64,000 nucleotides of DNA, from positions 4,123-68,122 of the forward strand of contig CAZHJZ010000004.1 in NCBI GenBank assembly GCA_964532495.1, given 5' to 3'. A model generated the notes under the pieces. The model made no database searches. It saw nothing but the letters and a program-made list of their open reading frames with translations, and was not told where the DNA came from. Positions within the stretch are counted from its first letter, which is position 1. The number at the start of each line of letters is the position of its first letter. The DNA comes from an uncultured Candidatus Saccharibacteria bacterium. Its GTDB lineage: Bacteria; Patescibacteriota; Minisyncoccia; Phycocordibacterales; UBA9973. A program made the translations under genes and the position numbers. Shown piece after piece: positions 49,945 through 64,000 of this stretch.

Positions 49945-50016
49945 TCCCCGGTAGCTCAGCGGTAGAGCAATCGCCTGTTAAGCGATTGGTCGTAGGTTCG
50001 ATCCCTACCCGGGGAG
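49945..50016 (+). tRNA. tRNA-Asn(GTT)
   Basis: Acceptor TCCCCGG/CCGGGGA, anticodon stem-loop ATCGC-CTGTTAA-GCGAT and T-arm GTAGG-TTCGATC-CCTAC. Confidence 0.85.
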
Positions 50017-50022
50017 CTTCAC

Positions 50023-50079
50023 AAAAACACCTATTTTATATGGGTGTTTTTGATTGCCATACTTAGGAGTTCGAACCTG
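50023..50079 (+). repeat. type-B intergenic module copy 1: terminator ACACCTAT-tttat-ATGGGTGT+T5, then conserved tail GATTGCCATACTTAGGAGTTCGAACCTG
   Basis: The same architecture recurs at 52571, 55727 and 57676, with tail-only variants at 51029, 51693 and 53609. Confidence 0.6.
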
Positions 50080-50116
50080 TGTTACAATTTGCATATTAGC
50101 GTTAACAATATTTTTT

Positions 50117-50305
50117 ATGAAAACATTAAAGTGTGATTTGTGCGAAACAACAGCTCAAGGAGAAACATTTGAGGCATGGATGCAAAATCTTATGCCGCAC
50201 TATATGCAAGCTCATGCTGACGTTATGAATGACCCCAAGAACGGCAAGGAACAACAGATGAAATGGATGGAAGAAAATAAAAAACGATTTGAAGAAGCCA
50301 AGTAA
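50117..50305 (+). CDS. small DUF1059-like protein
   Basis: MKTLKCDLCETTAQGETFEAWMQNLMPHYMQAH fits the KC.D..C......GET.E...........H pattern. Confidence 0.4.
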   Translation: MKTLKCDLCETTAQGETFEAWMQNLMPHYMQAHADVMNDPKNGKEQQMKWMEENKKRFEEAK

Positions 50306-50311
50306 ATTAGT

Positions 50312-50680
50312 ATGACTATTTTCTTCTTCTACCTCCTTGCATACCTCGTATTGTCTTTCGCACTTGGTGCAATTTGGCACATAGTTTTGTTTAAGGAGTA
50401 TTATAAAAAACTCGCGATATATTCGAACATCGAAAAGCCTCGGTTTGCCTTCGGTTTTTCTGCGATGCTTATTCAAGGTATTGTATTTGCGTATATGTAT
50501 CCGCTCGTACAAAATCCTATTATATTTGGAATTGGACTTTTCGGATTGCTTGCAAGCTTCATGGTATTTGCAGAGGCTGGTAAACAAAATGCTACCTCAT
50601 TATCAGGATTCGTAGGTATCCAGACAGCATTTTCTGCTGTACAAGCTATTCTGGTGACACTAGCCTTTTGGTTGATATAA
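50312..50680 (+). CDS. hypothetical 4-TM membrane protein (DUF1761-like)
   Basis: Hydrophobic helices. The DUF1761 assignment is uncertain. Confidence 0.3.
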   Translation: MTIFFFYLLAYLVLSFALGAIWHIVLFKEYYKKLAIYSNIEKPRFAFGFSAMLIQGIVFAYMYPLVQNPIIFGIGLFGLLASFMVFAEAGKQNATSLSGFVGIQTAFSAVQAILVTLAFWLI

Positions 50681-50691
50681 CAGTACTTGCA

Positions 50692-51000
50692 ATGCCCGTA
50701 AGCAAAAATACATATAAGATACGCTCTGAAGTTTTTCTCTGGCCTGGGATGTCTGGGTGGCATTTTATTGGCGTTCCCAAAAAACAATCGGGGGAAATAA
50801 AAAAACGATTTGGAGCAAACGCTAAAGGTTGGGGTTCGATTCCTGTATCTATAACCCTCGACAAGACAACATGGGACACTTCTATATTTCCCGACAAAAA
50901 ATCAGGTACATACCTACTGCCCCTCAAAGTGGAGGTTCGCAAAAAGGAAGGCGTGCTCGAAGGTGATGTAGTAAATTTCTTTTTGAAGGTAAGAATATAA
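50692..51000 (+). CDS. DUF1905 family protein
   Basis: W.F..VP...........GW.S.PV...L....W.TSIFPDKKSG.YLLPLK..VRKKEG...GD.V. Confidence 0.5.
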   Translation: MPVSKNTYKIRSEVFLWPGMSGWHFIGVPKKQSGEIKKRFGANAKGWGSIPVSITLDKTTWDTSIFPDKKSGTYLLPLKVEVRKKEGVLEGDVVNFFLKVRI

Positions 51001-51028
51001 CTATTTGACCCCATTAATACTCATTAAT

Positions 51029-51067
51029 GATTGCTTTTCGAACATCATCCCAAGTTCGGAGCATTAG
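51029..51067 (+). repeat. type-B tail copy (GATTGCTTTTCGAACATCATCCCAAGTTCGGAGCATTAG)
   Basis: Contains the CGAAC-(10 nt)-GTTCG hairpin and the GTTCGGAGCATTAG box shared with copies at 52620 and 51711. Confidence 0.5.
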
Positions 51068-51094
51068 AACTAGAAACCGATCTTTGTTATACTT

Positions 51095-51688
51095 ATGCAT
51101 ATGACTCTTACAAATCTCGCAATATTGTGTTTTGCTTCTATTTCATACATCGTGGGTTTCTATGCAATTATAAAGAATGGGTATCGTCCTAACATATTTA
51201 CTCGTACCGTATTTCTTTGTTTATCCTTGAACAGTCTTGCCAGTGTTATTAAACTTGGTACCCAATCTTCTACCCTTACACTTGCATATGTTACATTTTT
51301 CGGGAGCTTACTAATATTTACTGGTTCAATTATATTCAAAAGCGAGAGATTGTGGGGTAAAAATGAAACTATTTCTACTATCCTCCTGGTTACCAGTCTT
51401 TTGATTTGGATTTTTACTGATTTTCCCTTACTTAATCTTTGTATAGGACTAATTGCACACTTGTTGGGTTCGTTACCAACCGTTACTCGTGTTATTAAAA
51501 AACCAGGAAGTGAAAATATTCCCTTTTGGTTATTATTTGCATTGGCCAGTATCATAGCTTTACTCTCCACCCATGGTAGCAATATCAAAGATTATATATT
51601 CGCTATATATTTCTGTATTTTTGATAGTGGCATGACGATACTTGCATGCAGAAAGTATTTTATAAAAAATCAATTGCTAACAATCTGA
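51095..51688 (+). CDS. hypothetical polytopic membrane protein (5-6 TM)
   Basis: Hydrophobicity pattern only. Confidence 0.35.
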   Translation: MHMTLTNLAILCFASISYIVGFYAIIKNGYRPNIFTRTVFLCLSLNSLASVIKLGTQSSTLTLAYVTFFGSLLIFTGSIIFKSERLWGKNETISTILLVTSLLIWIFTDFPLLNLCIGLIAHLLGSLPTVTRVIKKPGSENIPFWLLFALASIIALLSTHGSNIKDYIFAIYFCIFDSGMTILACRKYFIKNQLLTI

Positions 51689-51692
51689 CAAA

Positions 51693-51727
51693 GACTGTTT
51701 CGAATATCCTCCCAGGCTCGGAGCAAA
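51693..51727 (+). repeat. type-B tail copy variant (GACTGTTTCGAATATCCTCCCAGGCTCGGAGCAAATT)
   Basis: Aligns to the 51029 and 52620 copies. Confidence 0.45.
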
Positions 51728-51865
51728 TTTGACAATTTAATATTTCATGCTATTGTTCAAGCAATACTGTTTTTTGACACACAACGTTATTTTAGTTGTC
51801 TTACTCGTGGTTCTTGAAGGGGTCACTAGTAAGACAACTAATTCTTCACAAAATTTAAACACACC
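51728..51865 (+). promoter_or_regulatory. type-A promoter/leader module copy 1
   Basis: TTGACA (51729-34), a 16-nt spacer, TGcTATTGT extended -10, then TTTTTTGACACA. The hairpin is AGTTGTCTTACT-[cgtggttcttgaaggggtcact]-AGTAAGACAACT (51794-51839), and the ATG is at 51866. Confidence 0.5.
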
Positions 51866-52477
51866 ATGGGTCAACGCATCTATAAAATTATTACTGACAA
51901 GGGAATATTGTATGCCGTATTTGATAAGGTTCTTGACCAATTTGTGACTCCACCTGCTGCATCAGTATCAGCACTAGAGCACGATGCGGAAGAGGCGAGC
52001 GAGGAAGGCATACTTGACCTTACTTCTAAAACACTCAATAAAGTTGATGCTGCTATAGCAAAACTTGAAGCAGGAAAAAATCTGAATAAGGGAGAGGTTG
52101 CTACCCTCTATTCTTTTAACAAGTTTCTTGAAGGAACAGTAGCAGAGCATCAATATACGTACCCAGAAATCGATCCAAAAAAAATTGAGGGTTGGATTTC
52201 AGAACTTAATCTAAAAGAACAGTTTATTGCTCAAGGTGATGAAAACGTTAGAAATTTTATTCACGACAAAGCGCTCTACCCTTCTTACCAACAAAGAGCA
52301 TTAAACCCAAAACGACCATTAAAAGAATTAGACAAGGCGTCACCAAGTCAAAAAAAGCTTGCTGGCCGCTATCTCCGGGCACTAGTAACCATCGGAAACA
52401 TACTTGGACCTAAAAAATCAACTATCAAACAAGTACTTACCAAATTTTTCAAAAAACTCGAAGGCACAGACAATTAA
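51866..52477 (+). CDS. hypothetical protein (203 aa)
   Basis: No recognisable motif. A strong 15-bp hairpin terminator follows at 52504-52542 (AATATCTCGCCATAA-gat-TTATGGCGAGATATT+TTATTT). Confidence 0.35.
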   Translation: MGQRIYKIITDKGILYAVFDKVLDQFVTPPAASVSALEHDAEEASEEGILDLTSKTLNKVDAAIAKLEAGKNLNKGEVATLYSFNKFLEGTVAEHQYTYPEIDPKKIEGWISELNLKEQFIAQGDENVRNFIHDKALYPSYQQRALNPKRPLKELDKASPSQKKLAGRYLRALVTIGNILGPKKSTIKQVLTKFFKKLEGTDN

Positions 52478-52570
52478 TAAAAATCGTTCTGTCATTCAGT
52501 CCCAATATCTCGCCATAAGATTTATGGCGAGATATTTTATTTAGGGTTCAGAGGCTACAAAAATACTTTT

Positions 52571-52644
52571 ACACACATTTTATATAGATGTTTTTGACTG
52601 CCGTACTTAGGAGTACGAACATCGTCGCATGTTCGGAGCATTAG
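52571..52644 (+). repeat. type-B module copy (degenerate terminator + tail TGACTGCCGTACTTAGGAGTACGAACATCGTCGCATGTTCGGAGCATTAG)
   Basis: Full-length tail containing the 7-bp hairpin CGAACAT-cgtcgc-ATGTTCG. Confidence 0.55.
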
Positions 52645-52645
52645 T

Positions 52646-52785
52646 TTGACAAAAATAAAATATCGTTATAATGTGATTTAAATCACGGTTTTTTTGACAT
52701 ACCTAGTTATTGCTTATTGTGTCACCTCTGTCTCTTTATAGAAATAGTGGTGACGCAATAATTTTCTCACTTCATAACGACTACA
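52646..52785 (+). promoter_or_regulatory. type-A-like promoter/leader module (variant)
   Basis: TTGACA (52646-51), a 15-nt spacer, then TATAAT (52667-72). Next come the palindrome GTGATTTAAATCAC, the motif TTTTTTTGACATA, and a 13-bp leader hairpin TTATTGTGTCACC...GGTGACGCAATAA (52714-52761). The ATG is at 52786. Confidence 0.5.
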
Positions 52786-53151
52786 ATGAAAACAATGACT
52801 TTAACTGTCTGCGGATTTTACGTAAAACACGAAAACCTGCCAGGAATTCAGGATTTAGAAGCACAACATTGCTTAAAATACACCAGTGTGTCCAAAGAGC
52901 GCACGCATGCCTTAGACAACATGAGTGGCGAGATTACCCTAAACGCAGGGAGCCGCGAAGCAACAATGAAGCAAGGCGACAACCAATTTTCCTTTACTAT
53001 TTTGTCAGTGACAGGCTTAAGTCTGCCTGGACAAAATGAAACCTACCCTGAACTGCAATTTGGTTCAGAAGAAGATTGCGAATTCCGCCTAATCACGAAA
53101 CCAGATATAAATGTGGGACAAATCAATACATTTATTCAGAAAAACCTCTAA
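52786..53151 (+). CDS. hypothetical protein (121 aa)
   Basis: ORF only. Confidence 0.3.
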   Translation: MKTMTLTVCGFYVKHENLPGIQDLEAQHCLKYTSVSKERTHALDNMSGEITLNAGSREATMKQGDNQFSFTILSVTGLSLPGQNETYPELQFGSEEDCEFRLITKPDINVGQINTFIQKNL

Positions 53152-53161
53152 AACAAATAAC

Positions 53162-53521
53162 ATGTCTAGGAAAAGAAAAATTAAGACGGAAGCAGAAATA
53201 AATTTTGAAAACTTACAGAAATATATTGCGCCAAATACCATGGAGGAATATGTTTCATCATGCCGTAAAAGCCTTCAAAATTTCTTTGGCGAATCAAAAA
53301 TACAATTTACTCGATTGGTTTATGATGGATTAGGCACAGAAACAACAGCCACCTGTACTGTTAAACATAAACATAAAAAGACAGACCCAATCGCAACAAT
53401 CGTGTGGTCAAATGATGGGCAAACTCTTACAATTAACGATACTCAAATACCCTATTCTTTCGGCAGAATGGTTAACCTAATGAATGAATTAGGAAAATTG
53501 TTAGATAAGTTAAACCTATAA
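53162..53521 (+). CDS. hypothetical protein (119 aa)
   Basis: ORF only. Basic N-terminus MSRKRKIK. Confidence 0.3.
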   Translation: MSRKRKIKTEAEINFENLQKYIAPNTMEEYVSSCRKSLQNFFGESKIQFTRLVYDGLGTETTATCTVKHKHKKTDPIATIVWSNDGQTLTINDTQIPYSFGRMVNLMNELGKLLDKLNL

Positions 53522-53558
53522 AATATAAGTTAGTACACAACTCTAGTAAACATCTTTA

Positions 53559-53640
53559 CCATCATCTCGCAAGGGATGGTGGCTTTTTATGCCCTATCAT
53601 ATTTTAATATTGCCATTCGAACATCCCCCAAGTTCGGATC
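53559..53640 (+). repeat. type-B-like module (terminator CCATC..GATGG+T5, tail ATTGCCATTCGAACATCCCCCAAGTTCGGATC)
   Basis: Aligns with the 51029 copy. Confidence 0.45.
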
Positions 53641-53731
53641 AAAATTTCTGTATAACCGACCATCCTCATTTGATTGGTTTTAAACAACCAGTTGCTTTTT
53701 CGCCATTCCTGATTACGGTATACTAATAGTC

Positions 53732-55711
53732 ATGAAACGCAGCCATATATTTTTTGCGGTATTCTTATTAGGATGCTTGGCATTTATTGGATCATCGAGA
53801 ACCGCACATGCGAGCACACTTCCCACCCAGCAACCATTTCTTTACAATTTACGTCTTGGCGCAATGGATAGCGATGTAGCACGTTTGCAAAAATACTTGA
53901 ACGAGCACGGCGCTCTCGTAGCCACATCTGGCCCGGGATCATTAGGAAATGAAACCCAATACTACGGACCAGCGACGGCGCGTGCGATGCGGCTTTTCCA
54001 AGAAAAGCATGCGGGAGCAATCCTCTTCCCTTTGGGCCTCACCAAAGGAACAGGCAATTTTTATACTGCCACTCGAAATTTTGTAAACCAAACTCTGGGG
54101 CAAGACCCGATCTCTGAAACAGTTTCAAAAACAAGCGGCTACTATACTATCGGCGGCACACTAACAGGCATTACTGGCCAAATAATACTTCGAAATAATA
54201 CTGACACCATAACTATTAATCCCGGCCAGAGCGCTACCTTTCGTTTTCCCACTAAACTTGCTTCAGGCCAATCGTACAACCTTGCCGTAACTCAAATGCC
54301 AAATGGTCAACACTGTTTTATCGCTCCTGGTCAAAATAGCAACGGCGTCGTATATAACTCCGATGTGAACATTCCTATCCAATGTAGCAGCAATGGCTTA
54401 AACCCATTTAAACCACTTATCCCATCAAGCGGCATAGCAACATATACAATCGGCGGAACGGTTTCAGGATTGACTGATACGGTGATTCTTGAAAAAAGCA
54501 ACGGCGACAGTCTAACTATTTCAAACAATGGTGCTTTTGCATTTCCAACTGCTATCGCATCGGGCGGTTCATATTCGGTCAGTATTACATCTCAGCCAGC
54601 CGGACAGACCTGCAACATTGTAAACGACAATGGCACAAATATAAGCGCTAATATCACCAACATTGATGTCTCATGTGTCACCAATACATTCACTGTAGGC
54701 GGAACAGTTTCGGGACTTTCGGGGACTGTCATCTTGTTGAACAATGGAGGAGATGCGAACACGCTAACAAGTGATGGACCGTTTACATTTGCAACTCCGG
54801 TAGCAGAAGGCAGTCCTTACAGTGTGGCTGTACAAACTCAACCCGCAGATCAAACCTGTGTTATTACAAACAGTACCGGCATAATGGGAGGATCAAATGT
54901 GACCAATGTCAGTGTGAGTTGTTCGCTCACTCTTGTAAGCATTACAGTTACGCCAAGCAATTCTTCTCTTCCAAGGACCATTACTAAGCAATTCACTGCA
55001 ATTGGACAATATGCGGATTCAAGCACAGCAGACATTACAGCATCTGTGGCTTGGGATACGTCCAATCATAGTATTGCGACGATCAATGGCACTGGATTAG
55101 GAACAGGAGTCAGCTCAGGAACAACACAAGTCTCTGCAACATTGGATGGTGTTGTTGGAAACACAAATCTAACCGTAACCAATGCAACGTTAGTAGCCAT
55201 CACAGTCTTACCGAATAGTTCAACTCTTCCGACCGGCATCAATTTGCAATATACAGCCCAGGGTATTTTTTCCGATGCAAGCACTGTTAACATTACCAAT
55301 CAAGCTACGTGGGAGGTATCCGACCCGACTATTGCCACAATTGATGGCACACGATTGGTGACTGGCGTTTCCCCTGGAATAACACAAATTAGGGCATCCC
55401 TGAATGCTGTTCTTGGAAGTACAAACTTAACAGTAACCGATGCTATTTTGGTATCCATCACAATCTCCCCTTCAAATCCTTCCGTCGCGAGAAACTCCAC
55501 ACTCCAATTATCAGCCATCGGTACATTCAGTGATAGTTCTGCCGTAAACATTACCAATCAGGCTGCTTGGACTTCTACAGCAACAAGCGTTGCAACCGTC
55601 AATAACACTGATCACAAAGGAAAGGTTACCGGTGTCGCAGGAGGAGCATCAAGTATTCGTGCAAGCCTTACCTTTATTATGGGCACTGCTACGCTGTTCG
55701 TAGGTTCTTAA
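53732..55711 (+). CDS. secreted cell-surface protein: signal peptide, peptidoglycan-binding domain, 4x ~90-aa repeats, 3x Big_2 (bacterial Ig-like) domains
   Basis: PG_binding_1-like LRLGAMDSDVARLQKYLNEHG...YGPATARAMRLFQ. Repeats of the form YTIGGT[VL][ST]G[IL]T..VIL. Big_2 repeats such as ITVTPSNSSLPRTITKQFTAIGQYADSS..DIT..VAW.TSN..IATI. Confidence 0.6.
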   Translation: MKRSHIFFAVFLLGCLAFIGSSRTAHASTLPTQQPFLYNLRLGAMDSDVARLQKYLNEHGALVATSGPGSLGNETQYYGPATARAMRLFQEKHAGAILFPLGLTKGTGNFYTATRNFVNQTLGQDPISETVSKTSGYYTIGGTLTGITGQIILRNNTDTITINPGQSATFRFPTKLASGQSYNLAVTQMPNGQHCFIAPGQNSNGVVYNSDVNIPIQCSSNGLNPFKPLIPSSGIATYTIGGTVSGLTDTVILEKSNGDSLTISNNGAFAFPTAIASGGSYSVSITSQPAGQTCNIVNDNGTNISANITNIDVSCVTNTFTVGGTVSGLSGTVILLNNGGDANTLTSDGPFTFATPVAEGSPYSVAVQTQPADQTCVITNSTGIMGGSNVTNVSVSCSLTLVSITVTPSNSSLPRTITKQFTAIGQYADSSTADITASVAWDTSNHSIATINGTGLGTGVSSGTTQVSATLDGVVGNTNLTVTNATLVAITVLPNSSTLPTGINLQYTAQGIFSDASTVNITNQATWEVSDPTIATIDGTRLVTGVSPGITQIRASLNAVLGSTNLTVTDAILVSITISPSNPSVARNSTLQLSAIGTFSDSSAVNITNQAAWTSTATSVATVNNTDHKGKVTGVAGGASSIRASLTFIMGTATLFVGS

Positions 55712-55726
55712 TTTAATGTAACTAGC

Positions 55727-55780
55727 AAAAACACTCATTTTATATGGGTGTTTTTATTTACTCTACTTACAAGTTCCAAC
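55727..55780 (+). repeat. type-B module copy (terminator ACACTCAT-tttat-ATGGGTGT+T5, degenerate tail ATTTACTCTACTTACAAGTTCCAAC)
   Basis: Aligns to the 50023 copy. Confidence 0.5.
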
Positions 55781-55799
55781 TTTTGATATACTCATATCT

Positions 55800-56504
55800 A
55801 TGGAACAGCCAAGAATGAATCAGCCCCCTACCCCTCAGTGGTCACATTTAGAAAAAGGATACGCTCCGATACGTACCTGTATCAATGATGCTGAAAATCT
55901 CACAGAAGAAACAAAAGAAAAGATCCAGGAAATAAAAAACAACGGACTGGAAGTTCCAATGGATAGTATTTCGCAAATTGATGAAAAAGAGAAACACTCT
56001 TTGGGGTATGCTTACTGCACAGGCATTATTATGACTGGAGTTGATAAGCATACAGGAAAACAAATATCATTCATGGCACACAAGGATCCTCACGGTTTAA
56101 AATCTGACAGTTTCAGAATTGATTTGGAAAAGAGAACCAGTGAACTGTTGAGCAGATCATTACCAAGAAGCGTGGATGCTGTACTTTTTGGTGGTAGAGG
56201 CGGACATATACATGACACTGACAGGCACGAGGATTCAATGAAATATTGGTCTGAAATTTGTAAAAAAATACTGCATTTTGAACCAACAATTTTGGGAGGT
56301 CCGAATATTTGGCCATTGCGCACAGCAGACAACTGGACAGAAAAGGAGAGAAAAGAGAGAGATAAATGGACGGATGTCTATTTTGATACTGAACATCGTC
56401 GGCTCGAATTAGTTCGAGTGGAACAATATAATAGCAAGCTCAATGAGCCTTTTACTGCTGCGGACTACTCAAAACAAAAAGAACGATGGGAGGGAGCCGA
56501 ATAA
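55800..56504 (+). CDS. hypothetical cytoplasmic protein (234 aa)
   Basis: ORF only. Confidence 0.35.
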   Translation: MEQPRMNQPPTPQWSHLEKGYAPIRTCINDAENLTEETKEKIQEIKNNGLEVPMDSISQIDEKEKHSLGYAYCTGIIMTGVDKHTGKQISFMAHKDPHGLKSDSFRIDLEKRTSELLSRSLPRSVDAVLFGGRGGHIHDTDRHEDSMKYWSEICKKILHFEPTILGGPNIWPLRTADNWTEKERKERDKWTDVYFDTEHRRLELVRVEQYNSKLNEPFTAADYSKQKERWEGAE

Positions 56505-56620
56505 AATTGACAATCCAATATTTCATGCTATTGTTCAAGCAAGAGTGCTTTTTGACATTTGTTTATTAGTGACCAGAGAAGGCCTCCCCTTTTGCGGCCA
56601 CTAATAAACCGCACCGTGAA
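56505..56620 (+). promoter_or_regulatory. type-A promoter/leader module copy 2
   Basis: TTGACA (56507-12), a 16-nt spacer, TGcTATTGT, then TTTTTGACA (56552-57). The hairpin is TTAGTGACC-[agagaaggcctccccttttgc]-GGCCACTAA (56566-56604). An alternative partner TGGTCAC lies at 56648-56654. Confidence 0.5.
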
Positions 56621-56723
56621 AAACAAAAAACGATTATTCTTTCTTAGAAGTTGGTCACATTTCATACTATCTACTGTTTTATTTCTGGTAACCGCCTATG
56701 TACTAGTAATAAACAATTACAAC

Positions 56724-57128
56724 ATGAGGTATGAAAATACAGCAGTACAGGTAGTCGGCTATCATCCAGGACACACCGACAAACACAACAATATAGAAGA
56801 CTATTACCTTATTGCCCGCACAAAAGATTCAAAACTAGTCAGAATTTTAGTAAGCGAAAAGACTCGCCGGCATCTAGCTATCGGAAGCAAGTCAGTATTC
56901 CCTTTACGTAAAGTAGATATCGACCCAACAGACATTAGAGGCCCTATTTATTTCTTCAGTGCAATACTGTTGTCATTTATTTCTGTTTCGTACTTTTTCT
57001 TTTTATTCCTTTTCTATTTTGGATTGTATAAAGAATGGGATAACGTTCAGCAAAACAGTCTAGGTGGTTCAAACACACCTAGCACGCTACGACTACCCCT
57101 TTTGGGAGGATTCCTGTTTCGACAGTAA
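56724..57128 (+). CDS. hypothetical membrane protein (start uncertain)
   Basis: The ORF track begins at 56559 but runs through the leader hairpin. The first ATG is at 56724. C-terminal TM IYFFSAILLSFISVSYFFFLFLFYF. Confidence 0.3.
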   Translation: MRYENTAVQVVGYHPGHTDKHNNIEDYYLIARTKDSKLVRILVSEKTRRHLAIGSKSVFPLRKVDIDPTDIRGPIYFFSAILLSFISVSYFFFLFLFYFGLYKEWDNVQQNSLGGSNTPSTLRLPLLGGFLFRQ

Positions 57129-57263
57129 GATTAAAAAATGTAAAAAGGCTTGTAATTGTATATATACAATTACAAGCCTTTATTATTTCTCTCTTCAAAT
57201 CACCTTTAGTGACGGGTCTTTTTGATTCATACTATGAAATTCAAAGTATGATAAAATAAATAT

Positions 57264-57641
57264 ATGAAAACAAATAGCAAAAAATATGTAGACGGGTTTG
57301 TAATCCCAATAAAAAAGAAGGACTTAGCAGCATATAAGAAAATGGCAACATGGGGAGCAGGCATGTGGATGAAGTATGGCGCTCTCAGTTATTTTGAATG
57401 TGTTGGAGAAGATCTTGGAGTAAAGAACGGCATGGGAATGGGCTTCAAGAAGCTCGCTGGATTGAAGGCCAATGAGACCGTTATCTTTTCATTCATCGTA
57501 TATAAGTCGAAAGCAGACAGAGACCGAATCAATAAGAAAGTGATGAGCGATCCTTCAATGAAAGACTTTGATGAAAAATCAATGCCTGTCGATATGAAGC
57601 GATTCGTTTGCGGCGGGTTTGATACGCTCGTCGAAGGATAA
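57264..57641 (+). CDS. DUF1428 (YbaA-like) family protein
   Basis: YVDGFVIPIKKKDLAAYKKMA...YFECVGEDL...ETVIFSFIVYKSKADRDRINKKVMSDP. Confidence 0.55.
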   Translation: MKTNSKKYVDGFVIPIKKKDLAAYKKMATWGAGMWMKYGALSYFECVGEDLGVKNGMGMGFKKLAGLKANETVIFSFIVYKSKADRDRINKKVMSDPSMKDFDEKSMPVDMKRFVCGGFDTLVEG

Positions 57642-57675
57642 TACTTCAAATACCTTTAAGATCCCCTAGACGCCA

Positions 57676-57727
57676 AAAACACCCATGCAAGATGGGTGTT
57701 TTTGAATCATGATATACTTTACGAACT
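57676..57727 (+). repeat. type-B module copy (terminator ACACCCAT-gcaag-ATGGGTGT+T5; tail GAATCATGATATACTTTACGAACTT)
   Basis: Same stem sequence as the 50023 and 55727 copies, with a different loop. Confidence 0.55.
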
Positions 57728-57730
57728 TAT

Positions 57731-58675
57731 ATGAAACTTCATCCTGACAAACAGCTTGAAATTACGCAGCCCGCTATCGCTCAGATTTTAAGCTTATATG
57801 CTATTTCTGATTTCACTTTCCAGCCTATCAAGGCAGGCATCGAAAATACTTCAGTATATATCGAAACCGGAGGAAAAAAGTGCGTCCTTCGTATCTATAG
57901 TCAAGGGAAAAAACCTGACAACATCATTTTTCTTGAGCTAGAGTTTCAAGACTATCTGCGCACGCGAGGAATACCCATTCCACATATCTACCCTACTTTG
58001 CAAAACCAGCCTCTTGCTATTGTTGAGATAAATGGAAAACGCTGGCAAGCCATTTTAATGGAATTTAAAGAAGGGATGAGCACTGAAATTCACCCAAACA
58101 ATGCATTGCTCGCAGAACTAGCCCGAACCCAAGCAAACATGCATATCCTTGGAATGGAATTTGCTAAAAAGGCTGCAACGCTACAACCACCGATAGCTAT
58201 TGTGACGGTCGAAACAGCCGGGAAAATTAAAACTTCCCCGATTCAAACAAAAGAGATGCTTGATTTTATCAACCGAGCCAAATCTTTTGCTTATCGACTT
58301 GACCCTCTCCTTCCCCACGGATACAACCATCTTGATTTAGATTTCGATGGCAATGTCATAGTAACGGGAAACACTATTGCCGCCATTGTGGACTTTGATG
58401 ATTTGAAATACTCGCCTGCAGTGATGTGTCTAGGATTTACGCTATGGAAAATACTGAATGACAAAGGCATAGAAGGATTTCGGTATTATTTGAATGAATA
58501 CCAGAAGGTTCGACCCCTCACAGAGCCAGAGCGGCAAGCGCTTCCGCATATCGTTTTCTTTCGAAATTACGAAGTTGGCATCATACTGCTTTTATTATGG
58601 GAACATGATACGCCGCTTACTGACATTCTTGCTATTCTCCAGCTCGAAAAAGAGCTGCCTGAATTACTCGGATAG
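57731..58675 (+). CDS. phosphotransferase family protein (APH/ChoK-like kinase fold)
   Basis: Brenner motif region HLDLDFDGNVIV and DFDD. Confidence 0.55.
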   Translation: MKLHPDKQLEITQPAIAQILSLYAISDFTFQPIKAGIENTSVYIETGGKKCVLRIYSQGKKPDNIIFLELEFQDYLRTRGIPIPHIYPTLQNQPLAIVEINGKRWQAILMEFKEGMSTEIHPNNALLAELARTQANMHILGMEFAKKAATLQPPIAIVTVETAGKIKTSPIQTKEMLDFINRAKSFAYRLDPLLPHGYNHLDLDFDGNVIVTGNTIAAIVDFDDLKYSPAVMCLGFTLWKILNDKGIEGFRYYLNEYQKVRPLTEPERQALPHIVFFRNYEVGIILLLLWEHDTPLTDILAILQLEKELPELLG

Positions 58676-58678
58676 CAC

Positions 58679-58990
58679 CTAGTCCTTCTCCACAAAATCC
58701 TTCAATGCCTCCAATCGCTTTTCCCACTGCAATTCAAGCTTTGCGATGAACTTTTTTACAACACCCAGCGAGCGAGTGTCGAGAGACACAGTAGTATCCC
58801 TGCCGGCGGTTTTCAATATCACAATTTTTGCATCTTCTAAGATATGGAGATGCTTTCGTGCTCCCTGTCTGGTAAGCGGCAATCCTTTGACGAGAGAGCT
58901 TATGGTATACACTTTCCCGCCAGAAAGACGCTCAACCATTTCTAGCCTTGTCTCATCACCCAGCGCACGAAATAATTCAGCAGTGCTCAT
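58679..58990 (-). CDS. ArsR/SmtB family transcriptional regulator
   Basis: ELFRALGDETRLEMVERL...ISSLVKGLPLTRQGARKHLHILEDAKIV wHTH. Confidence 0.65.
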   Translation of the reverse strand: MSTAELFRALGDETRLEMVERLSGGKVYTISSLVKGLPLTRQGARKHLHILEDAKIVILKTAGRDTTVSLDTRSLGVVKKFIAKLELQWEKRLEALKDFVEKD

Positions 58991-59439
58991 TATTGCTGTT
59001 GGCTGAATACTTTCTCGAGGCGATTCATCATATAGTCCCAACCGCCAGAATTATCCTTAAAGCTTTTCTCTGCCATCTCGACAGGCAATGCGGCAAAGCC
59101 AGATTCTTTGACTGTTACCTTTGTTCCTTCTGATTGTTCTTCGATTAAAAACTCAACGAGCGTATGAGGCAGTGACATAACATCTTCTCCGCCCTTATCG
59201 TTCCCTCCTGGAATCCATCGGAATGAGAAATAATCAAACGGCGTAGCTTTTTCGATATGCACTTGGGCTTTGTTTTTGCCGCCATTGAAAATAAACAGCG
59301 GGTTTTGACCTTCTTCCAACGTTCCGTTCTCTATTGCGTCAGGAAACCACGCCACCACCTTTGCGGGGTCAGTAATTGCACCATACACTTTTTCTTTATT
59401 CGCCTTAACTATGATTTCACGGCTTATGACATCTTGCAT
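58990..59439 (-). CDS. SRPBCC (AHSA1/Aha1-like) domain protein
   Basis: IIVKANKEKVYGAITDPAKVVAWFP...IPGG. Its stop overlaps the ArsR start (TAATG). Confidence 0.6.
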   Translation of the reverse strand: MQDVISREIIVKANKEKVYGAITDPAKVVAWFPDAIENGTLEEGQNPLFIFNGGKNKAQVHIEKATPFDYFSFRWIPGGNDKGGEDVMSLPHTLVEFLIEEQSEGTKVTVKESGFAALPVEMAEKSFKDNSGGWDYMMNRLEKVFSQQQ

Positions 59440-59537
59440 ATTTTTTATATTTTTATGATTAGTATCTAACTTCCCTACTATATATCAGTATGATATTTTA
59501 TGCAACTATTTGGTTGCATATATATTTTAGTAGGCAT

Positions 59538-59655
59538 ATTTGACAAATTGATATTTCATGCTATTATTCAATCAATACTTTTTGAAAATATATATTTTGT
59601 GGTTATCAGAGAAGGGCGCTCCCCTTTTGCGATAACCACAAAATCAAAAGAACGA
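59538..59655 (+). promoter_or_regulatory. type-A promoter/leader module copy 3
   Basis: TTGACA (59540-45), a 16-nt spacer, TGcTATTAT, then TTTTTGAAAATA. The hairpin is TGTGGTTATC-[agagaagggcgctccccttttgc]-GATAACCACA (59598-59640), and the ATG is at 59656. Confidence 0.5.
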
Positions 59656-60279
59656 ATGAAACAGACATGCCTGCTAGTTATCCTGCTATTCTTATTCGGT
59701 TGCAATCAACCCAAGGTAGTACAAGAAGAAGTATTTACAGCAGAAGATACCATTTCCGTAGATACTTCTATCACACAGCGGATTACGGTATATGGTGATG
59801 TTCACGCCCTTCTCAACGAACGAGTAGTTCCTGAAGAAGTACAGCAAATCCAGCGATGGCTTTGCGATAACATCAGTGAAGAGATCGTTGTTGCGGAAGG
59901 TGTTCCCTATGGCGATTCTGTAACGATTAGATCACTTATCGCTGAAATAAAAGCTGAAGCTCCTGAAATCACTGATGCGCAGATACTAGAACGCCTTACC
60001 TCTCTCAACGAAGTAAATAACACCTACTTTACGAGTTTTTTACTGAAAGGAAACAAACTTTTATTCGGAGGTGAAAATGATTCGCTATACACCGCTATCG
60101 GGAACCTAGAAGATAGAACTTCCCCAGCCAATGTAAATGCTCGAAGTCGTGCTATTTTCTTGAATGCAGTTACGATTGCACGAAAATACCCTACGCAAAA
60201 GATTGCAATAGTAATCGGACGCAGGCATTTATCATGGTTCTCATGCAATGGCATAAAAACCATTGACCCAAAAAAATAA
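59656..60279 (+). CDS. hypothetical lipoprotein
   Basis: Lipobox LLFLFGC. Confidence 0.45.
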   Translation: MKQTCLLVILLFLFGCNQPKVVQEEVFTAEDTISVDTSITQRITVYGDVHALLNERVVPEEVQQIQRWLCDNISEEIVVAEGVPYGDSVTIRSLIAEIKAEAPEITDAQILERLTSLNEVNNTYFTSFLLKGNKLLFGGENDSLYTAIGNLEDRTSPANVNARSRAIFLNAVTIARKYPTQKIAIVIGRRHLSWFSCNGIKTIDPKK

Positions 60280-60389
60280 GCTCATTGCAAACAATATTAT
60301 TAACTCACTTCATAGTTTATCTATGGAGTGAGTATTTTTATTTATAGAGCATGATTCACAGTGATTTGAATCATGGTATACTTTTTTAC

Positions 60390-61175
60390 ATGAAATTTAA
60401 AACGCTTCAATGGAACATCAACGGCGGCAAAATAAGAACTGCCGATTCTGATCCAACAAAAGGTCCTGGGTCGTTGAAACCCAGCTATATTCACGAAGGC
60501 TTCGACTACATTGTTTCAAAAATAAAAGAATATGATGTTGATATTATTACACTTCAAGAAACTCATGCCGATACCCATACTATTCAAGCTCAAGTAATTG
60601 CCGAAAAACTAGGCTTTCCATATTGGACAAACGATAGATACGAAGAGTCCCACTTAGAAAAAGGCCAGGGCTTGTGCCAATCCATTATTTCAAAATATCC
60701 AATTTCCTATCATACATTTGAACTATTCAATAATCCTTATTTTGAAGCCGTTGCCGAAGACGGCAGCACCTGGATCTCGCATGATAAAGGATATTCTTTA
60801 GCAGAAATGACATTATCTGAAGACAAAATGCTAACTGTTATAACACTACACCTTCTACCATTCCCTCGTTTCAAACTCGCACTCGACGATAGAAGTGTTA
60901 TAGAAGTTCTCACAGAAGTTTCCAATAAATTAGTACCACATACCTCAAACCTAACTTTAATTCAGGGTGACTTTAATATCGATGATATATCGTTAAAATC
61001 ACATCTTCCGGAACTATTTACCTCCCTACAAGAAATTGAAGCGGCTCAACCTACTACCCCGGGCGACAGCAGGTTTGACCATGTGTTATATAAAAATGTA
61101 CAGTTAATTTCTACCAAGGTCTATGATACTGTACTAACTGATCATTACCCTATAATTTCAGAATTTGAAGTTTAG
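60390..61175 (+). CDS. endonuclease/exonuclease/phosphatase (EEP, DNase I-like) family protein
   Basis: WNINGG N-terminus, ITLQET, GDFNID, and a C-terminal DH..ISEF motif. Confidence 0.65.
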   Translation: MKFKTLQWNINGGKIRTADSDPTKGPGSLKPSYIHEGFDYIVSKIKEYDVDIITLQETHADTHTIQAQVIAEKLGFPYWTNDRYEESHLEKGQGLCQSIISKYPISYHTFELFNNPYFEAVAEDGSTWISHDKGYSLAEMTLSEDKMLTVITLHLLPFPRFKLALDDRSVIEVLTEVSNKLVPHTSNLTLIQGDFNIDDISLKSHLPELFTSLQEIEAAQPTTPGDSRFDHVLYKNVQLISTKVYDTVLTDHYPIISEFEV

Positions 61176-61182
61176 AATTTTT

Positions 61183-61716
61183 TCAATTAGCAATTAAAGA
61201 TACAATCTTCTCTGCAACGTCTTTAGAATCCCCATGCGCATCTACAATTACCGCTCCGCGGGCAACCATTTTATCTTCCCATGTTTTTTTCCATCCTATA
61301 ATCCAATCTTGGACTTCAATCGTTTTTCCAAAATCATTATTGTTATCTCTAGATGTAAGCCTTTCCCGGGTTGTTTTTTCATCAACCTGTAAAAGGATAA
61401 TCTTATTAAAAAATGGAAGGATATCGTGCATATTGCTTGCGCTTCCGCAATAAAACGACACACCCTCTACATCAGCTTCAATTAGTGATGAGAGCTTCGC
61501 TGTATCGCAAATCCATTCCGTCGCCCTCACTTTTCCTAGATTCGCATTATCATGACTAGGAATCGGCTCGCGTGTCTCCTTGTCGACAAGCATAAATAAA
61601 CCTCTTTTTTTATCCATATCACATGCTTGGTATCCCATTGCCTTTAATTCTGCACAGATGGTTGTTTTGCCCGAACCATTAACACCCGTAATAAGGATAG
61701 TTTTTTTCATGAACAT
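61183..61716 (-). CDS. P-loop NTPase (AAA/nucleoside-kinase-like)
   Basis: Walker A ILITGVNGSGKTT and Walker B-like IILLQVDE. Confidence 0.5.
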   Translation of the reverse strand: MFMKKTILITGVNGSGKTTICAELKAMGYQACDMDKKRGLFMLVDKETREPIPSHDNANLGKVRATEWICDTAKLSSLIEADVEGVSFYCGSASNMHDILPFFNKIILLQVDEKTTRERLTSRDNNNDFGKTIEVQDWIIGWKKTWEDKMVARGAVIVDAHGDSKDVAEKIVSLIAN

Positions 61717-61755
61717 AGTATATCAAACCAGCAACCACTTTTACGCTCGAGTGAA

Positions 61756-62907
61756 TTACTGATACTGTATGAAGCTCGGCTGCGGAGTAAACTTTAATAT
61801 CTGCGCAGGTGTAAGAAGCGCTGTTGAGGGCTCGCGCAGGTCATTCTTGTAGAACAATTTGATGCCGGTAAACTGCACCGGCTCACTGCTGACGACTGCC
61901 TTGTAAATATTACTTTTCAAGAGCGGAGGACCCCATCCATCAGCATCCATGACTATCTGCACTTCTGGAAGAGGCGTAATGTTTTCCGAATGTGTCACCA
62001 TATGTTCGGTGAATCGATGGACGACAAGAATTTTCGGAGGGAGATCGTATTTTTTAACGAGAGATGCCAAATAGTCTGCGACATAATTTATATCCGTTGC
62101 ATCCATGGTACCGATAACACTGCCGGGGCGGTTTCCTCCCTTCATTGAAAATTCCGGATCAAGCGCAAGGTGCACTTGCGGAAGCTTAAGATATTCTTCA
62201 AGTCGAGGGATTTCGCTCTCCACATCGCTTAGTCCGTTCTGGACATCAAGTATCACGATACCATTGGCCTCTTTAGCAAGCTCAATTGCCTTATCGATCT
62301 GATCAAACGGCATGCGAGCCCGATACTTGCCATCAAAGCCGGCGCTTCCCTGCGCAGTTACTGCAATATATTCTATGGCAGGAACAACAGGCGTCGATGG
62401 ATCAGCAGTATTCCATTCGGCTATCGCAGCTCTAAATTTTTGCAACATAACCTCTGGTTCATATTCTCCCAATACCCCCATTCTCGTTGAATAGAAATTG
62501 CCGTAATAAGCAACGATGCGGTTGAAAGGTAAAAGCGCTCCTGGAAGCGGATAGGCAGCTTTGACAGGCCATGGTGATGCGACGACAGGCTTTGGGGCAA
62601 CAGCTGGAGTAGGAGTGGCAGTAGCAGTACCGGTTGTCGCAGGAGTTGGAGCAGCAACCACTGGCACATTGGCGATCTGCAGCAACTTTGCATCATAGGC
62701 AGCCTTGTCTAAAACTGGCTTTGCTTTTGGAGTTGGTACCGTGATGCTTTTAACCTCCTTTGAAACTCCAGCATCATAGTGAACCGAAAAGAGACGTGTG
62801 CCGCTAATAACATACACAAACACGAAACCAATAATCCCCACCCCTACGATCCACGCAACAACCCTGAGATTCTTATTTTTGAGAACTTTTTGAGAAATAT
62901 TTTGCAT
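61756..62907 (-). CDS. hypothetical membrane-anchored protein with Thr/Pro/Ala-rich linker and C-terminal alpha/beta domain
   Basis: The start is taken at MQNISQKV. The ORF-track extension up to 63063 overlaps the next gene. Confidence 0.35.
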   Translation of the reverse strand: MQNISQKVLKNKNLRVVAWIVGVGIIGFVFVYVISGTRLFSVHYDAGVSKEVKSITVPTPKAKPVLDKAAYDAKLLQIANVPVVAAPTPATTGTATATPTPAVAPKPVVASPWPVKAAYPLPGALLPFNRIVAYYGNFYSTRMGVLGEYEPEVMLQKFRAAIAEWNTADPSTPVVPAIEYIAVTAQGSAGFDGKYRARMPFDQIDKAIELAKEANGIVILDVQNGLSDVESEIPRLEEYLKLPQVHLALDPEFSMKGGNRPGSVIGTMDATDINYVADYLASLVKKYDLPPKILVVHRFTEHMVTHSENITPLPEVQIVMDADGWGPPLLKSNIYKAVVSSEPVQFTGIKLFYKNDLREPSTALLTPAQILKFTPQPSFIQYQ

Positions 62908-63004
62908 AGTATCCGTAAATATTAACACACTTAGAGAGTAATTCGAAGATATGCGCATTATAAAAAGCGCTCTTGCAGAAGCGCTTTTTAAACATATATT
63001 ACTT

Positions 63005-63295
63005 TTATTGCTGAGCTGTCGTACCTCCAGTAGTTCCGGCGGTAGATGCTCCAGTCGCAGCACCAGTTGTTCCGCCTGTAGTATCAGGTTTTGGAATTGT
63101 TACATTGATGTTAGTTTCAGCTGGAGTCTGAGGCTGAGCTGTATTGTTTGCTCTGATCATCGGCAAGATATAGATGAAGAAGAGTGCGATCAAGACGAGT
63201 GATACGAGAACTCCAATAATAAGACCAGATCCGCCACCATCGTTGTTGTTATTGTTTGCTCCATGCTCTCCTGGATTATTGATTACTGTCGTCAT
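63005..63295 (-). CDS. small membrane protein with Gly/Thr-rich tail
   Basis: TM LIIGVLVSLVLIALFFIYILPMI. Confidence 0.3.
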   Translation of the reverse strand: MTTVINNPGEHGANNNNNDGGGSGLIIGVLVSLVLIALFFIYILPMIRANNTAQPQTPAETNINVTIPKPDTTGGTTGAATGASTAGTTGGTTAQQ

Positions 63296-63463
63296 AGCGA
63301 TAACTCTAAATTATTATATTGATAACTACACCTTTGCGTCAGAGAGACCTGTATTCAGTATACCACTGTATACGCGATTCCCTCCTGTATACAAAGACGT
63401 TTGGATGCCAGATATCGTTACATATCGCTGCTGGAGCAATAGCCTCATTGCTCGAATCTACAT

Positions 63464-63576
63464 AATTGACAAAACAGATAATTTATGCTATGATAGTATA
63501 GATATCTCTTTGACATGTTTTTTAGTGGCCACAGGAGGGCGATCCCCTATTGCGGCCACTAAAAAACCAAACCATC
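63464..63576 (+). promoter_or_regulatory. type-A promoter/leader module copy 4
   Basis: TTGACA (63466-71), a 17-nt spacer, TGcTATGAT, then TCTTTGACA (63510-15). The hairpin is TTTTAGTGGCC-[acaggagggcgatcccctattgc]-GGCCACTAAAA (63520-63564), and the ATG is at 63577. Confidence 0.5.
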
Positions 63577-64000
63577 ATGAAAAAGATCATCCTTCCTCTC
63601 ATTCCCGCTTTTTTATTTTCTTGCTCGCAGGAAAATAAGCCGAGTACGCTAACTATTGCAACGCCAATACAGAGTACCGTAACGCCACAGCCAGTGACCG
63701 TTACTGACGACTCGGTATTAGAAGAAAAAGTACGCAAAGCTTTTGCCCTTTTGCAAACATATGCAAAAACATCAAAAGTGTTACCGCGCAACTTTTCCCA
63801 TACATACATACTTCCCATTACGGGAGTAACATTTGGCATCGTTGAGCCAGGCAAAAACGGCACCACGCATCATATGGTTACAAAAAAAGGAATACTGCAC
63901 GGCGAACTGCCAATATATTTTGAAGACGTACCGATAGGTACTAGTGACCATGTCGCTCAAACAATTTCCGGCACTGTAGATATATCAAAGTTATCCAAAA
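63577..64000 (+). CDS. hypothetical lipoprotein (3' partial at window end)
   Basis: Lipobox AFLFSCS. Confidence 0.4.
   Translation, partial: MKKIILPLIPAFLFSCSQENKPSTLTIATPIQSTVTPQPVTVTDDSVLEEKVRKAFALLQTYAKTSKVLPRNFSHTYILPITGVTFGIVEPGKNGTTHHMVTKKGILHGELPIYFEDVPIGTSDHVAQTISGTVDISKLSK

Follow-up and report, generated by a model that had tools for sequence, protein, structure and literature searches.

A recurrent promoter and leader hairpin before unrelated accessory genes 3' of tRNA-Asn in Saccharibacteria: a putative portable cassette head

Why should genes that resemble each other in nothing else begin with the same promoter, followed by a hairpin whose stem changes in sequence from copy to copy and stays paired all the same? 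The question is raised by a stretch of 64,000 nucleotides (nt) from an uncultured Candidatus Saccharibacteria bacterium (assembly GCA_964532495.1, contig CAZHJZ010000004.1, positions 4,123 to 68,122), hereafter the window, in which a first look at the letters by themselves (the sequence-only reading) had pointed to a promoter-hairpin module upstream of at least four unrelated genes. Saccharibacteria and the other bacteria of the candidate phyla radiation (CPR) are ultra-small episymbionts, and to our knowledge their gene regulation and genome plasticity are almost unstudied. We find that the module recurs, that it keeps its place and its orientation relative to the gene behind it, that its stems are compensated, that no loop is conserved across its types, and that it sits in a genome poor in Shine-Dalgarno (SD) sequences and, as it appears, largely leaderless. 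The element is real, recurrent and evolutionarily maintained, lies outside every curated RNA family, and is best seen as a mobile promoter with a generic leader hairpin inside a tRNA-linked cassette region. With moderate confidence we suggest that the module is the conserved head of accessory-gene cassettes which build up and reshuffle 3' of tRNA-Asn in one clade of Saccharibacteria, and that its hairpin is a generic RNA leader duplex.

The pattern TTGACA-N11-16-TGCTAT is found four times in the 64-kb window, always on the forward strand (51729, 56507, 59540 and 63466), where 0.06 matches are expected, and the 29-mer ATATTTCATGCTATTGTTCAAGCAATACT around the -10 has three matches at up to three mismatches, against none expected. 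In a consensus scan of 49.9-64 kb the four copies are the top sigma-70-like sites, matching 10-11 of the 12 hexamer positions, with spacers of 16-17 nt and the TG extension in all. After each window promoter come a T-run with a further TTGACA (TTGAAA in copy 3), a hairpin of 19-22 bp and a co-oriented gene without an SD sequence; a looser copy 5 stands at 52646. The placing of four copies and a looser fifth is thus confirmed, and the shared promoter architecture holds for copies 1-4 but not for copy 5, which combines TTGACA with a 15-nt spacer and a TATAAT -10. The five hairpins have folding free energies (dG) of -23 to -30 kcal/mol and z-scores of -3.5 to -6.1 relative to shuffles. They end 6-24 nt 5' of the start codon, closer than the 10-45 nt first given. 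The proteins behind the five copies show no mutual similarity and have zero Pfam matches, in keeping with the heterogeneity that had been noted, and three of the five have N-termini of the signal, lipobox or transmembrane type. The AGAGAAGG...CCCCTTTTGCG core is confined to copies 2, 3 and 4, so that the internal loops described as conserved belong to one subfamily, the apical parts of copies 1 and 5 being unrelated to it. Coordinates are collected in Table 1, in which loci of related organisms carry L numbers and D7 denotes a junction repeat treated below.

Table 1. Positions of module parts, junction repeats and associated features in the window and, where an L number is given, in related loci.
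Feature	Position	Strand	Remarks
Copy 1 promoter block	51729..51779	+	-35 TTGACA 51729-51734; extended -10 TGCTATTGT 51748-51756; T-run and second TTGACA 51770-51779
Copy 1 small inverted repeat TATTG/CAATA over the -10	within 51729..51779	+	
Copy 1 leader hairpin	51792..51841	+	22 bp, 4 G.U; + RNA folds 4 kcal/mol better; apex unrelated to type A; start codon 51866
Copy 5 promoter block	52646..52699	+	TTGACA 52646-52651; TATAAT 52667-52672; palindrome GTGATTTAAATCAC 52673-52686; T-run and TTGACA 52689-52699
Copy 5 leader hairpin	52714..52761	+	20 bp; start codon 52786
Copy 2 promoter block	56507..56557	+	-35 56507-56512; TGCTATTGT 56526-56534; T-run and TTGACA 56549-56557; position overlaps 3' end of open reading frame 55800-56504
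Copy 2 type-A hairpin	56561..56609	+	outer stem with A.C mismatch; AG/GC internal loop; inner stem AGAAGG/CCUUUU; GTG start 56616
Copy 3 promoter block	59540..59588	+	-35 59540-59545; TGCTATTAT 59559-59567; T-run/TTGAAA 59579-59588
Terminator-like hairpin just 5' of copy 3	59499-59520		
Copy 3 type-A hairpin	59594..59644	+	21 bp, dG -26.6; lipoprotein gene ATG at 59656
Copy 4 promoter block	63466..63515	+	-35 63466-63471; TGCTATGAT 63486-63494; TTGACA 63510-63515
Copy 4 type-A hairpin	63517..63567	+	21 bp, dG -29.3; lipoprotein gene ATG at 63577
tRNA-Asn (GTT)	49945..50017	+	anchor of the variable region
Terminator-like hairpin family AAAAACACCCAT..ATGGGTGTTTTT	50022..50053; also 52566-52597, 55726-55757, 57674-57705	+ at 50022	
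D7 (TTCGAACATCATCCCAAGTTCGGAGCA)	51037..51063	+	followed by a weaker promoter and a near-leaderless gene, no hairpin
D7	51699..51725	+	directly 5' of module copy 1
D7	52614..52640	+	directly 5' of module copy 5
D7 (TTCGAACATCCCCCAAGTTCGGATCA)	53616..53642	+	5' of Big_2/PG_binding surface-protein gene 53732-55711; no module after
D7 in L009	1619, 2521, 5213, ~7077; weaker core match 3780		
D7 in L034/L035	L034 5792, 5729, 4471		three copies
D7 in L044	3735, 3166, 2069, 1190, 390		five within 3.4 kb
D7 in L051	9855		one copy

The module is not peculiar to this genome. Its hairpins fall into at least seven sequence types, of which the commonest, type A (11 distinct copies), has a 13-bp outer stem, an AG/GC internal loop and an inner stem AGAAGG/CCUUUU of 6-7 bp. 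A covariance model built from the T-run and the type-A hairpin, R1, finds just the three known type-A copies in the window and nothing in its 50 kb of core genome. Elsewhere R1 matches a second copy in L009, two in the L011/L014/L027-L030 species, two in L044, and one each in L018/L020 (a GC-poor relative, 31-32%) and L051; relatives L031 and L034-L043 gave no R1 match. Modules with other hairpin types came from pattern searches and inspection (L009 2521, L009 6653, L018 2350, L044 2069), and L009, a metagenome-assembled genome of Candidatus Saccharibacteria, is the sole genome match of the strict hairpin pattern with a real stem. Altogether 12 further distinct copies lie in related Saccharibacteria loci, nearly all just 3' of tRNA-Asn, and the module is present before unrelated genes in at least five other Saccharibacteria-like species or strains. 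The proposal that it is portable is upheld, as is the expectation that a covariance-model search would bring out more homologs. A promoter scan of metagenomes returned mostly unrelated strong promoters, with real modules only in L011/L014 and L018/L020, and a Sporosarcina match in the genome scan was set aside as not being a module, the stem being absent. We also observed that the rRNA-operon (16S rRNA) promoter of an unrelated metagenomic organism (L010 992-1037, L013 2347-2392) fits TTGACA-N17-TGCTATTAT and has a small hairpin after it, which shows that the promoter pattern by itself is not module-specific.

The common anatomy was taken from 17 instances (window, L009, L011, L018, L027 and L044), to which the L051 copy was added as an eighteenth. 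In the 17, a -35 TTGACA and a spacer of 15-17 nt precede a -10 that usually reads TGnTATTGT or TAAAGT/TATAAT, and a short inverted repeat covers or abuts the -10 (CTATTG-N4-6-CAATAG, GTGATTTWAATCAC or TATTAT-N4-ATAATA, according to module class). A run of 5-8 T then leads into GACA, as an exact TTTGACA in 11 of the 17, and a hairpin of 19-33 bp follows after 0-14 nt, with a dG of -19 to -32 in all of them. An A-rich linker of 3-24 nt separates it from the co-oriented start codon; in L051 the hairpin ends 9 nt before the start. All that the hairpin types share is their length, their position and an A/U-rich stem base. From 5' to 3', then, the proposed order would be D7 (often), a near-consensus sigma-70 promoter with extended -10, inverted repeat, T-run/GACA, hairpin, A-rich linker and SD-less start codon. 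The inverted repeat at the -10 could be an operator, or it could be a weak terminator, which would act on read-through transcripts alone because its 5' arm lies upstream of the predicted transcription start site (TSS). In four places a T-run comes directly after this repeat: window 51748-51768 and 52673-52699, L009 31-57 and L044 ~3680-3655.

The stems bear signs of selection on structure. Across the 11 distinct type-A hairpins, 91.8% of pair cells hold standard pairs, a share that falls to 41.5-55.7% if the 3' partners are displaced by 1-3 columns; both sides have changed in 10 of the 20 pairs (28 cells), and the covariation score was reached by none of 500 shuffles, figures to be read as indications and not as probabilities, since the type-A sequences are few and related and shuffle controls overstate significance. 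RNAalifold independently yields the same helix, with compensation in 9 of its 19 pairs. Stem pairing is maintained by compensatory substitutions, as had been claimed, although not with the perfect complementarity ascribed to the outer stems: TTAGTGACC/GGCCACTAA, of copy 2, carries an A.C mismatch. Orthologous leaders afford the clearest comparison. The proteins behind L011a and L051 share 46% identity, and both leaders have retained D7, promoter, T-run and hairpin; in the stems one A-U is replaced by G.U, a G.U of the inner stem has shifted and one mismatch has been repaired. Between L027 and L028 the promoter spacer has heavily diverged, while hairpin and coding sequence remain ~90% identical, so that hairpin and gene travel together.

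To judge from the kinds of pair that it tolerates, the structure more probably acts as RNA of the sense strand, which supports the earlier claim of a functional RNA structure. Minimum-free-energy structures contain 39 G.U pairs on the forward strand against 20 on the reverse, and on the forward strand the 39 G.U pairs compare with 11 of the symmetrical A.C mismatches. One G.U pair is kept in 10 of the 11 type-A hairpins, and the G.U/A-U exchanges between L011a and L051 are of the same kind. Forward-strand RNA folds better by 4-13 kcal/mol in copies 1 and 5 (c1, c5), L011a, L018a, L018b and L044m, whereas the TTAGTGACC/GGCCACTAA lineage folds ~3 kcal/mol better on the reverse strand because of its A.C mismatch.

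The synteny hisS-def-fmt-hpf-DUF167-tRNA-Asn is shared with many relatives (HPF proteins 65-76% identical), and in the window and at least five relatives it gives way to variable DNA, which differs between all species and between strains of one species (L027 vs L028); in the window the G+C content goes from ~0.45 before the tRNA to 0.37-0.43 after it. Some cassettes are common to different genomes and stand in different neighbourhoods: the Exo_endo_phos gene at 60351-61175 matches L009 1695-2522 at 73%, the L009 match ending at D7, and the APH gene at 57731-58675 matches an L027 gene. Near-identical terminators also recur between cassettes, and hence terminators, like promoters, are reused building blocks of the region. 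That the module is a cassette-associated element, one of the options first put forward, is borne out by its copies in this tRNA-Asn-linked region, often right after a tRNA-3'-like repeat.

That repeat, D7, is a 27-mer (consensus TTCGAACATCCTCCCAAGTTTGGAGCA) running from a T-loop-like TTCGAA to GGAGCA. It is nearly identical across species whose other intergenic DNA does not align, all clear copies are co-oriented with tRNA-Asn, and successive copies are 0.57-1.1 kb apart, enclosing one or two small genes. Before a co-oriented gene D7 leads into the promoter-hairpin module, and before an opposite gene it abuts a terminator-like hairpin, so D7 is a cassette boundary and not part of the promoter; a role as promoter UP element was rejected, as D7 also precedes terminators and opposite-strand genes. 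Its place relative to the -35 is that of the true tRNA 3' end in L011, and in L011/L027-L030 the module starts 4 nt past the genuine tRNA-Asn 3' end (...GGGGGAGC-AAAA-TTGACA). An end-anchored alignment of D7 with the T-loop-to-3'-end part of the relatives' tRNA-Asn was matched by 0-3 of 5000 shuffles, with tRNA-Tyr and tRNA-Lys scoring comparably over the T-arm part, and a local alignment with the window's own tRNA was not significant (306 of 2000 shuffles); the term tRNA-3'-end-like is accordingly meant as a description of D7, and its descent from tRNA-Asn is not taken as proven. We regard it as a candidate site-specific recombination (att-like) site, and its frequent place just before a module points to tRNA-linked, site-specific accretion of cassettes. 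No recombinase or integrase domain was found among the island open reading frames (ORFs) scanned in window 50-64 kb. IMG/VR viral contigs scanned for the hairpin core, D7 and the promoter block gave chance matches only (for example to a glutaredoxin CPYC motif and to coding sequence), and so no phage origin is indicated.

The region as a whole resembles tycheposons, tRNA-linked islands that arise by serial integration (bioRxiv 10.1101/2020.12.28.424599). There, too, a variable region starts at a tRNA gene and holds scattered partial-tRNA-like direct repeats with cargo between them, content varies between strains, and recombinases are only sometimes present. The units here differ in being putatively mobile single-gene cassettes of ~0.6-1 kb, and their repeat is a diverged 27-mer with higher conservation than the tRNA; no tyrosine recombinase was seen, and a large serine recombinase is present in two relatives. 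Integron arrays resemble the region in their ~1-kb single-gene cassettes, in the recurring site between them and in the conservation of structure over sequence. One may go further and imagine an integron-like but mechanistically unrelated system, in which cassettes of 0.6-1 kb are inserted serially at the tRNA-Asn 3' end via D7, many of them bringing their own promoter and a nuclease-proof hairpin head that would give immediate expression in a mostly leaderless host. We consider this a rather speculative extension, improbable as it stands. D7 could reveal a new route of cassette acquisition, and the module would gain in interest if the D7-bounded array were an active capture system.

The likeness to integrons suggests another thought, that the hairpin is not RNA at all but a recombination site for cassette capture that works at the DNA level, as a folded single strand or cruciform in the manner of attC. 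The copies do stand at cassette junctions in a tRNA-linked array, conservation of structure rather than sequence is what attC displays as its sequence drifts, the recurrent A.C mismatch becomes a G.T wobble on the bottom strand, and large serine recombinases adjoin two related regions. Serine recombinases, however, use double-stranded att sites. Moreover, the hairpin always lies between the promoter and a co-oriented start codon, 3-24 nt before the start, and is absent at D7 junctions whose neighbour gene is oppositely oriented, and the G.U bias favours the sense strand. In integrons attC lies 3' of the gene and cassettes are usually promoterless, whereas here the hairpin precedes the gene and follows a promoter that belongs to the cassette; the stem bases are GTTTTAT.../...ATAAAAC-like and variable, RYYYAAC/GTTRRRY consensus boxes are absent, and neither an integron-type integrase (IntI) or other recombinase among the window's island ORFs scanned nor an attI/Pc platform in the island was found. 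We think it unlikely that the hairpin is such a site.

It might also be argued that what spreads is the promoter, by duplication or recombination, and that the palindrome is a functionless hitch-hiker comparable to miniature inverted-repeat transposable elements (MITEs) or repetitive extragenic palindromic (REP) sequences. Over 55 nt the promoter blocks are 80-89% identical within the window and 90-92% identical to the copies in L009 and L027/L028, spacer included, which fits a recent DNA-level spread or recombination of the block. The sequence-only reading had excluded duplication on the ground that flanks differ; this is right for the genes, which are unrelated, but does not hold for the promoter block, with its 80-92% identity between copies and species. 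Copies are, besides, confined to one recombinogenic region, and highly similar promoters before non-homologous genes, within and across related genomes and in variable or exchanged DNA, are documented as putative mobile promoters (Matus-Garcia et al. 2012, PMC3488235). Near-identical promoter blocks before unrelated genes are just what we find, to which the module adds a compensated leader hairpin, a T-run/GACA and often a tRNA-3'-like repeat, all clustered in one tRNA-linked region. A neutral palindrome, on the other hand, should decay, and yet 92% of cells are paired, with 28 doubly changed cells and compensation in half of the 20 pairs, and orthologous leaders still fold at 46% protein identity. 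The stems differ between copies, so these are not copies of one terminal inverted repeat, and target-site duplications were not seen.

Small intergenic palindromes of this general sort are well known from the Correia elements of Neisseria and the ERIC, BOX and REP families, which can supply promoters and RNase III-processed RNA hairpins. Such families are dispersed genome-wide and share terminal inverted repeats and target-site duplications. The module differs from them in that its stems vary and covary and its copies are confined to one island, with no matches in the other 50 kb of the window and no duplications at the module ends. That the palindrome is mere passenger sequence seems to us doubtful.

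Nor do we favour the idea that the type-A hairpin, with its AG/GC loop, AGAAGG/CCUUUU inner stem and conserved G.U, binds a specific RNA-binding regulator and thereby unites the cassettes in a regulon. The type-A core is conserved across species with GC contents from 25% to 47%, and the constancy of one G.U pair would agree with a binding site. But in 7 of the 18 instances the same arrangement of the promoter is combined with apical sequences of six other, unrelated kinds. Nor is the internal loop constant (in L011a/L051 it is closed by GUG, and copy 4 differs); the inner stem covaries like an ordinary helix, and the module has no candidate binding protein linked to it. A ligand- or protein-specific leader, as the sequence-only reading had it, is for that reason not what the loops suggest, since they are conserved within one subfamily only and the six other types share just length and position. 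We put the chances of a dedicated regulator low.

An SD core stands at the usual place in 3 of the 46 long ORFs of the window, while a -10 hexamer TAnAnT (often TGnTATACT) ends 3-11 nt before the ATG in 12 of the 46, against ~1 expected, and leaderless mRNAs appear to be the norm in this genome. Candidate leaderless starts are, for example, at 20473, 23259, 24117, 37201, 42432, 45738, 53732, 55800 and 57731. The module genes also lack an SD throughout, and their predicted leaders of ~85-110 nt are therefore exceptional. Type A does contain an SD-like AGAAGG/AGGAGG run, but its distance of 35-40 nt from the start codon, its absence from the other types of hairpin and the scant use of SD sequences in this genome led us to reject it as a real ribosome-binding site. 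Two other roles for leader segments were likewise discarded. A leader peptide from the TTG in CCCCTTTTGCG would have 3 codons in three copies and would share the reading frame of the gene in two copies but not in others, which is inconsistent, and a second promoter from the downstream TTGACA finds no -10 at 16-18 nt in any copy.

We posit instead that the hairpin acts as RNA in the transcript from the module promoter, and that as a duplex it would stop the 5'-exonuclease RNase J, perhaps once the U-rich GACA segment a few nt before the hairpin has been cut, so that this leadered mRNA would have a fixed 5' end resistant to nucleases. Alternatively, the duplex may be an RNase III processing site which frees the cassette mRNA from upstream RNA. 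With the hairpin, a cassette that has just arrived would be expressed whatever its genomic surroundings, and the module would spread with the cassettes as DNA, through site-specific recombination at D7/tRNA-Asn and homologous exchange between promoter blocks. A generic function of this kind is the most economical because what is conserved across types is a long, stable duplex at a fixed place, between a strong promoter and a start codon without an SD, with a conserved single-stranded U-run-GACA just upstream, and because CPR bacteria are reported to retain RNase J (5' exonuclease/endonuclease) and RNase III (specific for double-stranded RNA), as well as PNPase (PMC12641178). There is precedent in Staphylococcus aureus saePQRS, where a 24-bp duplex directs an RNase Y cut 6 nt upstream and stabilises the downstream fragment (PMC5449607). 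Together with this case, 5' stem-loop stabilisers and the RNase III sites of phage T7 share with the module a duplex of ~20-24 bp in an untranslated region, a gene start soon after it and a single-stranded A/U-rich segment with a G a few nt upstream; the module differs from them in being promoter-proximal, multi-copy and known from sequence alone. Its duplexes, at 19-33 bp, have the length (about two helical turns of double-stranded RNA) that RNase III or duplex-guided processing calls for, and cleavage is our prediction. The nuclease-protection or processing mechanism is inferred from these likenesses.

Several points weigh against this proposal, besides the small size and relatedness of the type-A set mentioned above. 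The hairpin begins ~16-30 nt 3' of the predicted TSS and could be a 5'-terminal stabiliser only after the leader has been cut; TSS, processing and stabilisation are all predictions, and RNase Y is not among the nucleases reported as retained in CPR bacteria. The folding-energy test of strand was not significant (mean ddG -1.9 kcal/mol, 9 vs 8 copies, p=0.28), and the A.C mismatch, a G.U on the reverse strand, persists in four type-A copies. Finally, the proposal explains neither the conserved T-run/GACA nor the small -10 palindrome with any certainty.

Least probable by a wide berth is a riboswitch, RNA thermometer or attenuator, in which the leader would sense a ligand or temperature and switch folds: position in a 5' leader, the pairing of the SD-like purine run with a CU-rich strand in type A and one alternative pairing in copy 2 speak for it, but the leader is a single unbranched helix without a junction or loop conserved across types, with no U-tract after it and with the start codon beyond it; SD sequences are hardly used, the alternative fold lacks conservation, and Rfam has no matching family. 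The alternative pairing noted in copy 2 (GTGACCA 56569-56575 with TGGTCAC 56652-56658) does exist but is absent from eight other copies, and a 7-mer complement within 150 nt arises by chance in ~18% of shuffles; the mutually exclusive folds that it had suggested are not supported. A conserved aptamer core with an expression platform was not recognised either: apical and internal loops differ, and neither a terminator nor sequestration of a ribosome-binding site is present. The suggested thermosensor, or SD-sequestering element, is hard to reconcile with an SD in 3 of 46 genes and a start codon outside the hairpin; in so SD-poor a genome the usual logic of SD-sequestering thermometers and riboswitches falls away. 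With Rfam at the gathering threshold only eight tRNAs pass in the window, and permissive scans of 59500-59700 and 50000-64000 gave sub-threshold generic hairpin or miRNA matches only. No ROSE- or fourU-like thermometer was seen at the module, where the start codon lies 3-24 nt past the helix; a ROSE_2 match elsewhere (60572-60644) scores 23.6 bits against a threshold of 65.

If the module is indeed a portable cassette head with a generic leader duplex, it would amount to a natural expression cassette, promoter plus insulating leader, usable as a genetic part for a lineage that is now becoming genetically tractable. It would also offer a way to study how a bacterium that is SD-poor and mostly leaderless, and has RNase J and RNase III, deals with leadered mRNAs. 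The hot spot 3' of tRNA-Asn, where strains exchange surface, lipoprotein and unknown genes, plausibly matters for host interaction.

Some further observations concern the region and its cargo. In metagenome contigs with the hpf-fmt-def block (L024-L026, L032, L033, L036, L039, L042, L043, L046) the end of the contig is often no more than a few hundred bases from the tRNA-Asn position, as would be expected if assemblies break where DNA varies between strains or is rich in repeats. The terminator family occurs also at L009 ~1651-1675, and a shared TACTTAGGAGTTCGAAC segment is often next to it. Large serine recombinase genes (Resolvase+Recombinase+Zn_ribbon_recom) abut tRNA-Asn at L044 8171-9652 and L045 5440-6921, and L050/L051 have a Resolvase-domain ORF of 573-581 aa at 1-659, in an island whose cargo includes a Type III restriction-modification system, copper-resistance genes and one D7-promoter-hairpin cassette. 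Surface-type proteins with PG_binding_1 and Ig-like repeats (Big_2, Flg_new_2, cadherin-like) are recurrent cargo (window 53732-55711, L031 6277-8286, L051 15141-18002) and are possible host-interaction factors.

A Zn-ribbon family of ~170-210 aa (JGI name DUF1610-like) stands repeatedly right behind the module, at L011 9472-9981, in the L044 gene after 2069 and at L051 10001-10510. Identity between the members behind the module goes down to 27-46%, and the association of module and gene is therefore old for that family. A homologue search with the L011a Zn-ribbon protein returned two proteins only. The L011 gene 11214-11834 is not similar to L011a and has 31% identity to the L044 Zn-ribbon member over 80 residues. 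In the window itself, a public gene call of 259 aa (59500-60279; L049 1941-2720) spans the copy 3 promoter and hairpin, an annotation artefact that arises because the frame stays open through the module, the plausible lipoprotein start being at 59656; ORF 56559-57128 likewise crosses the hairpin of copy 2.

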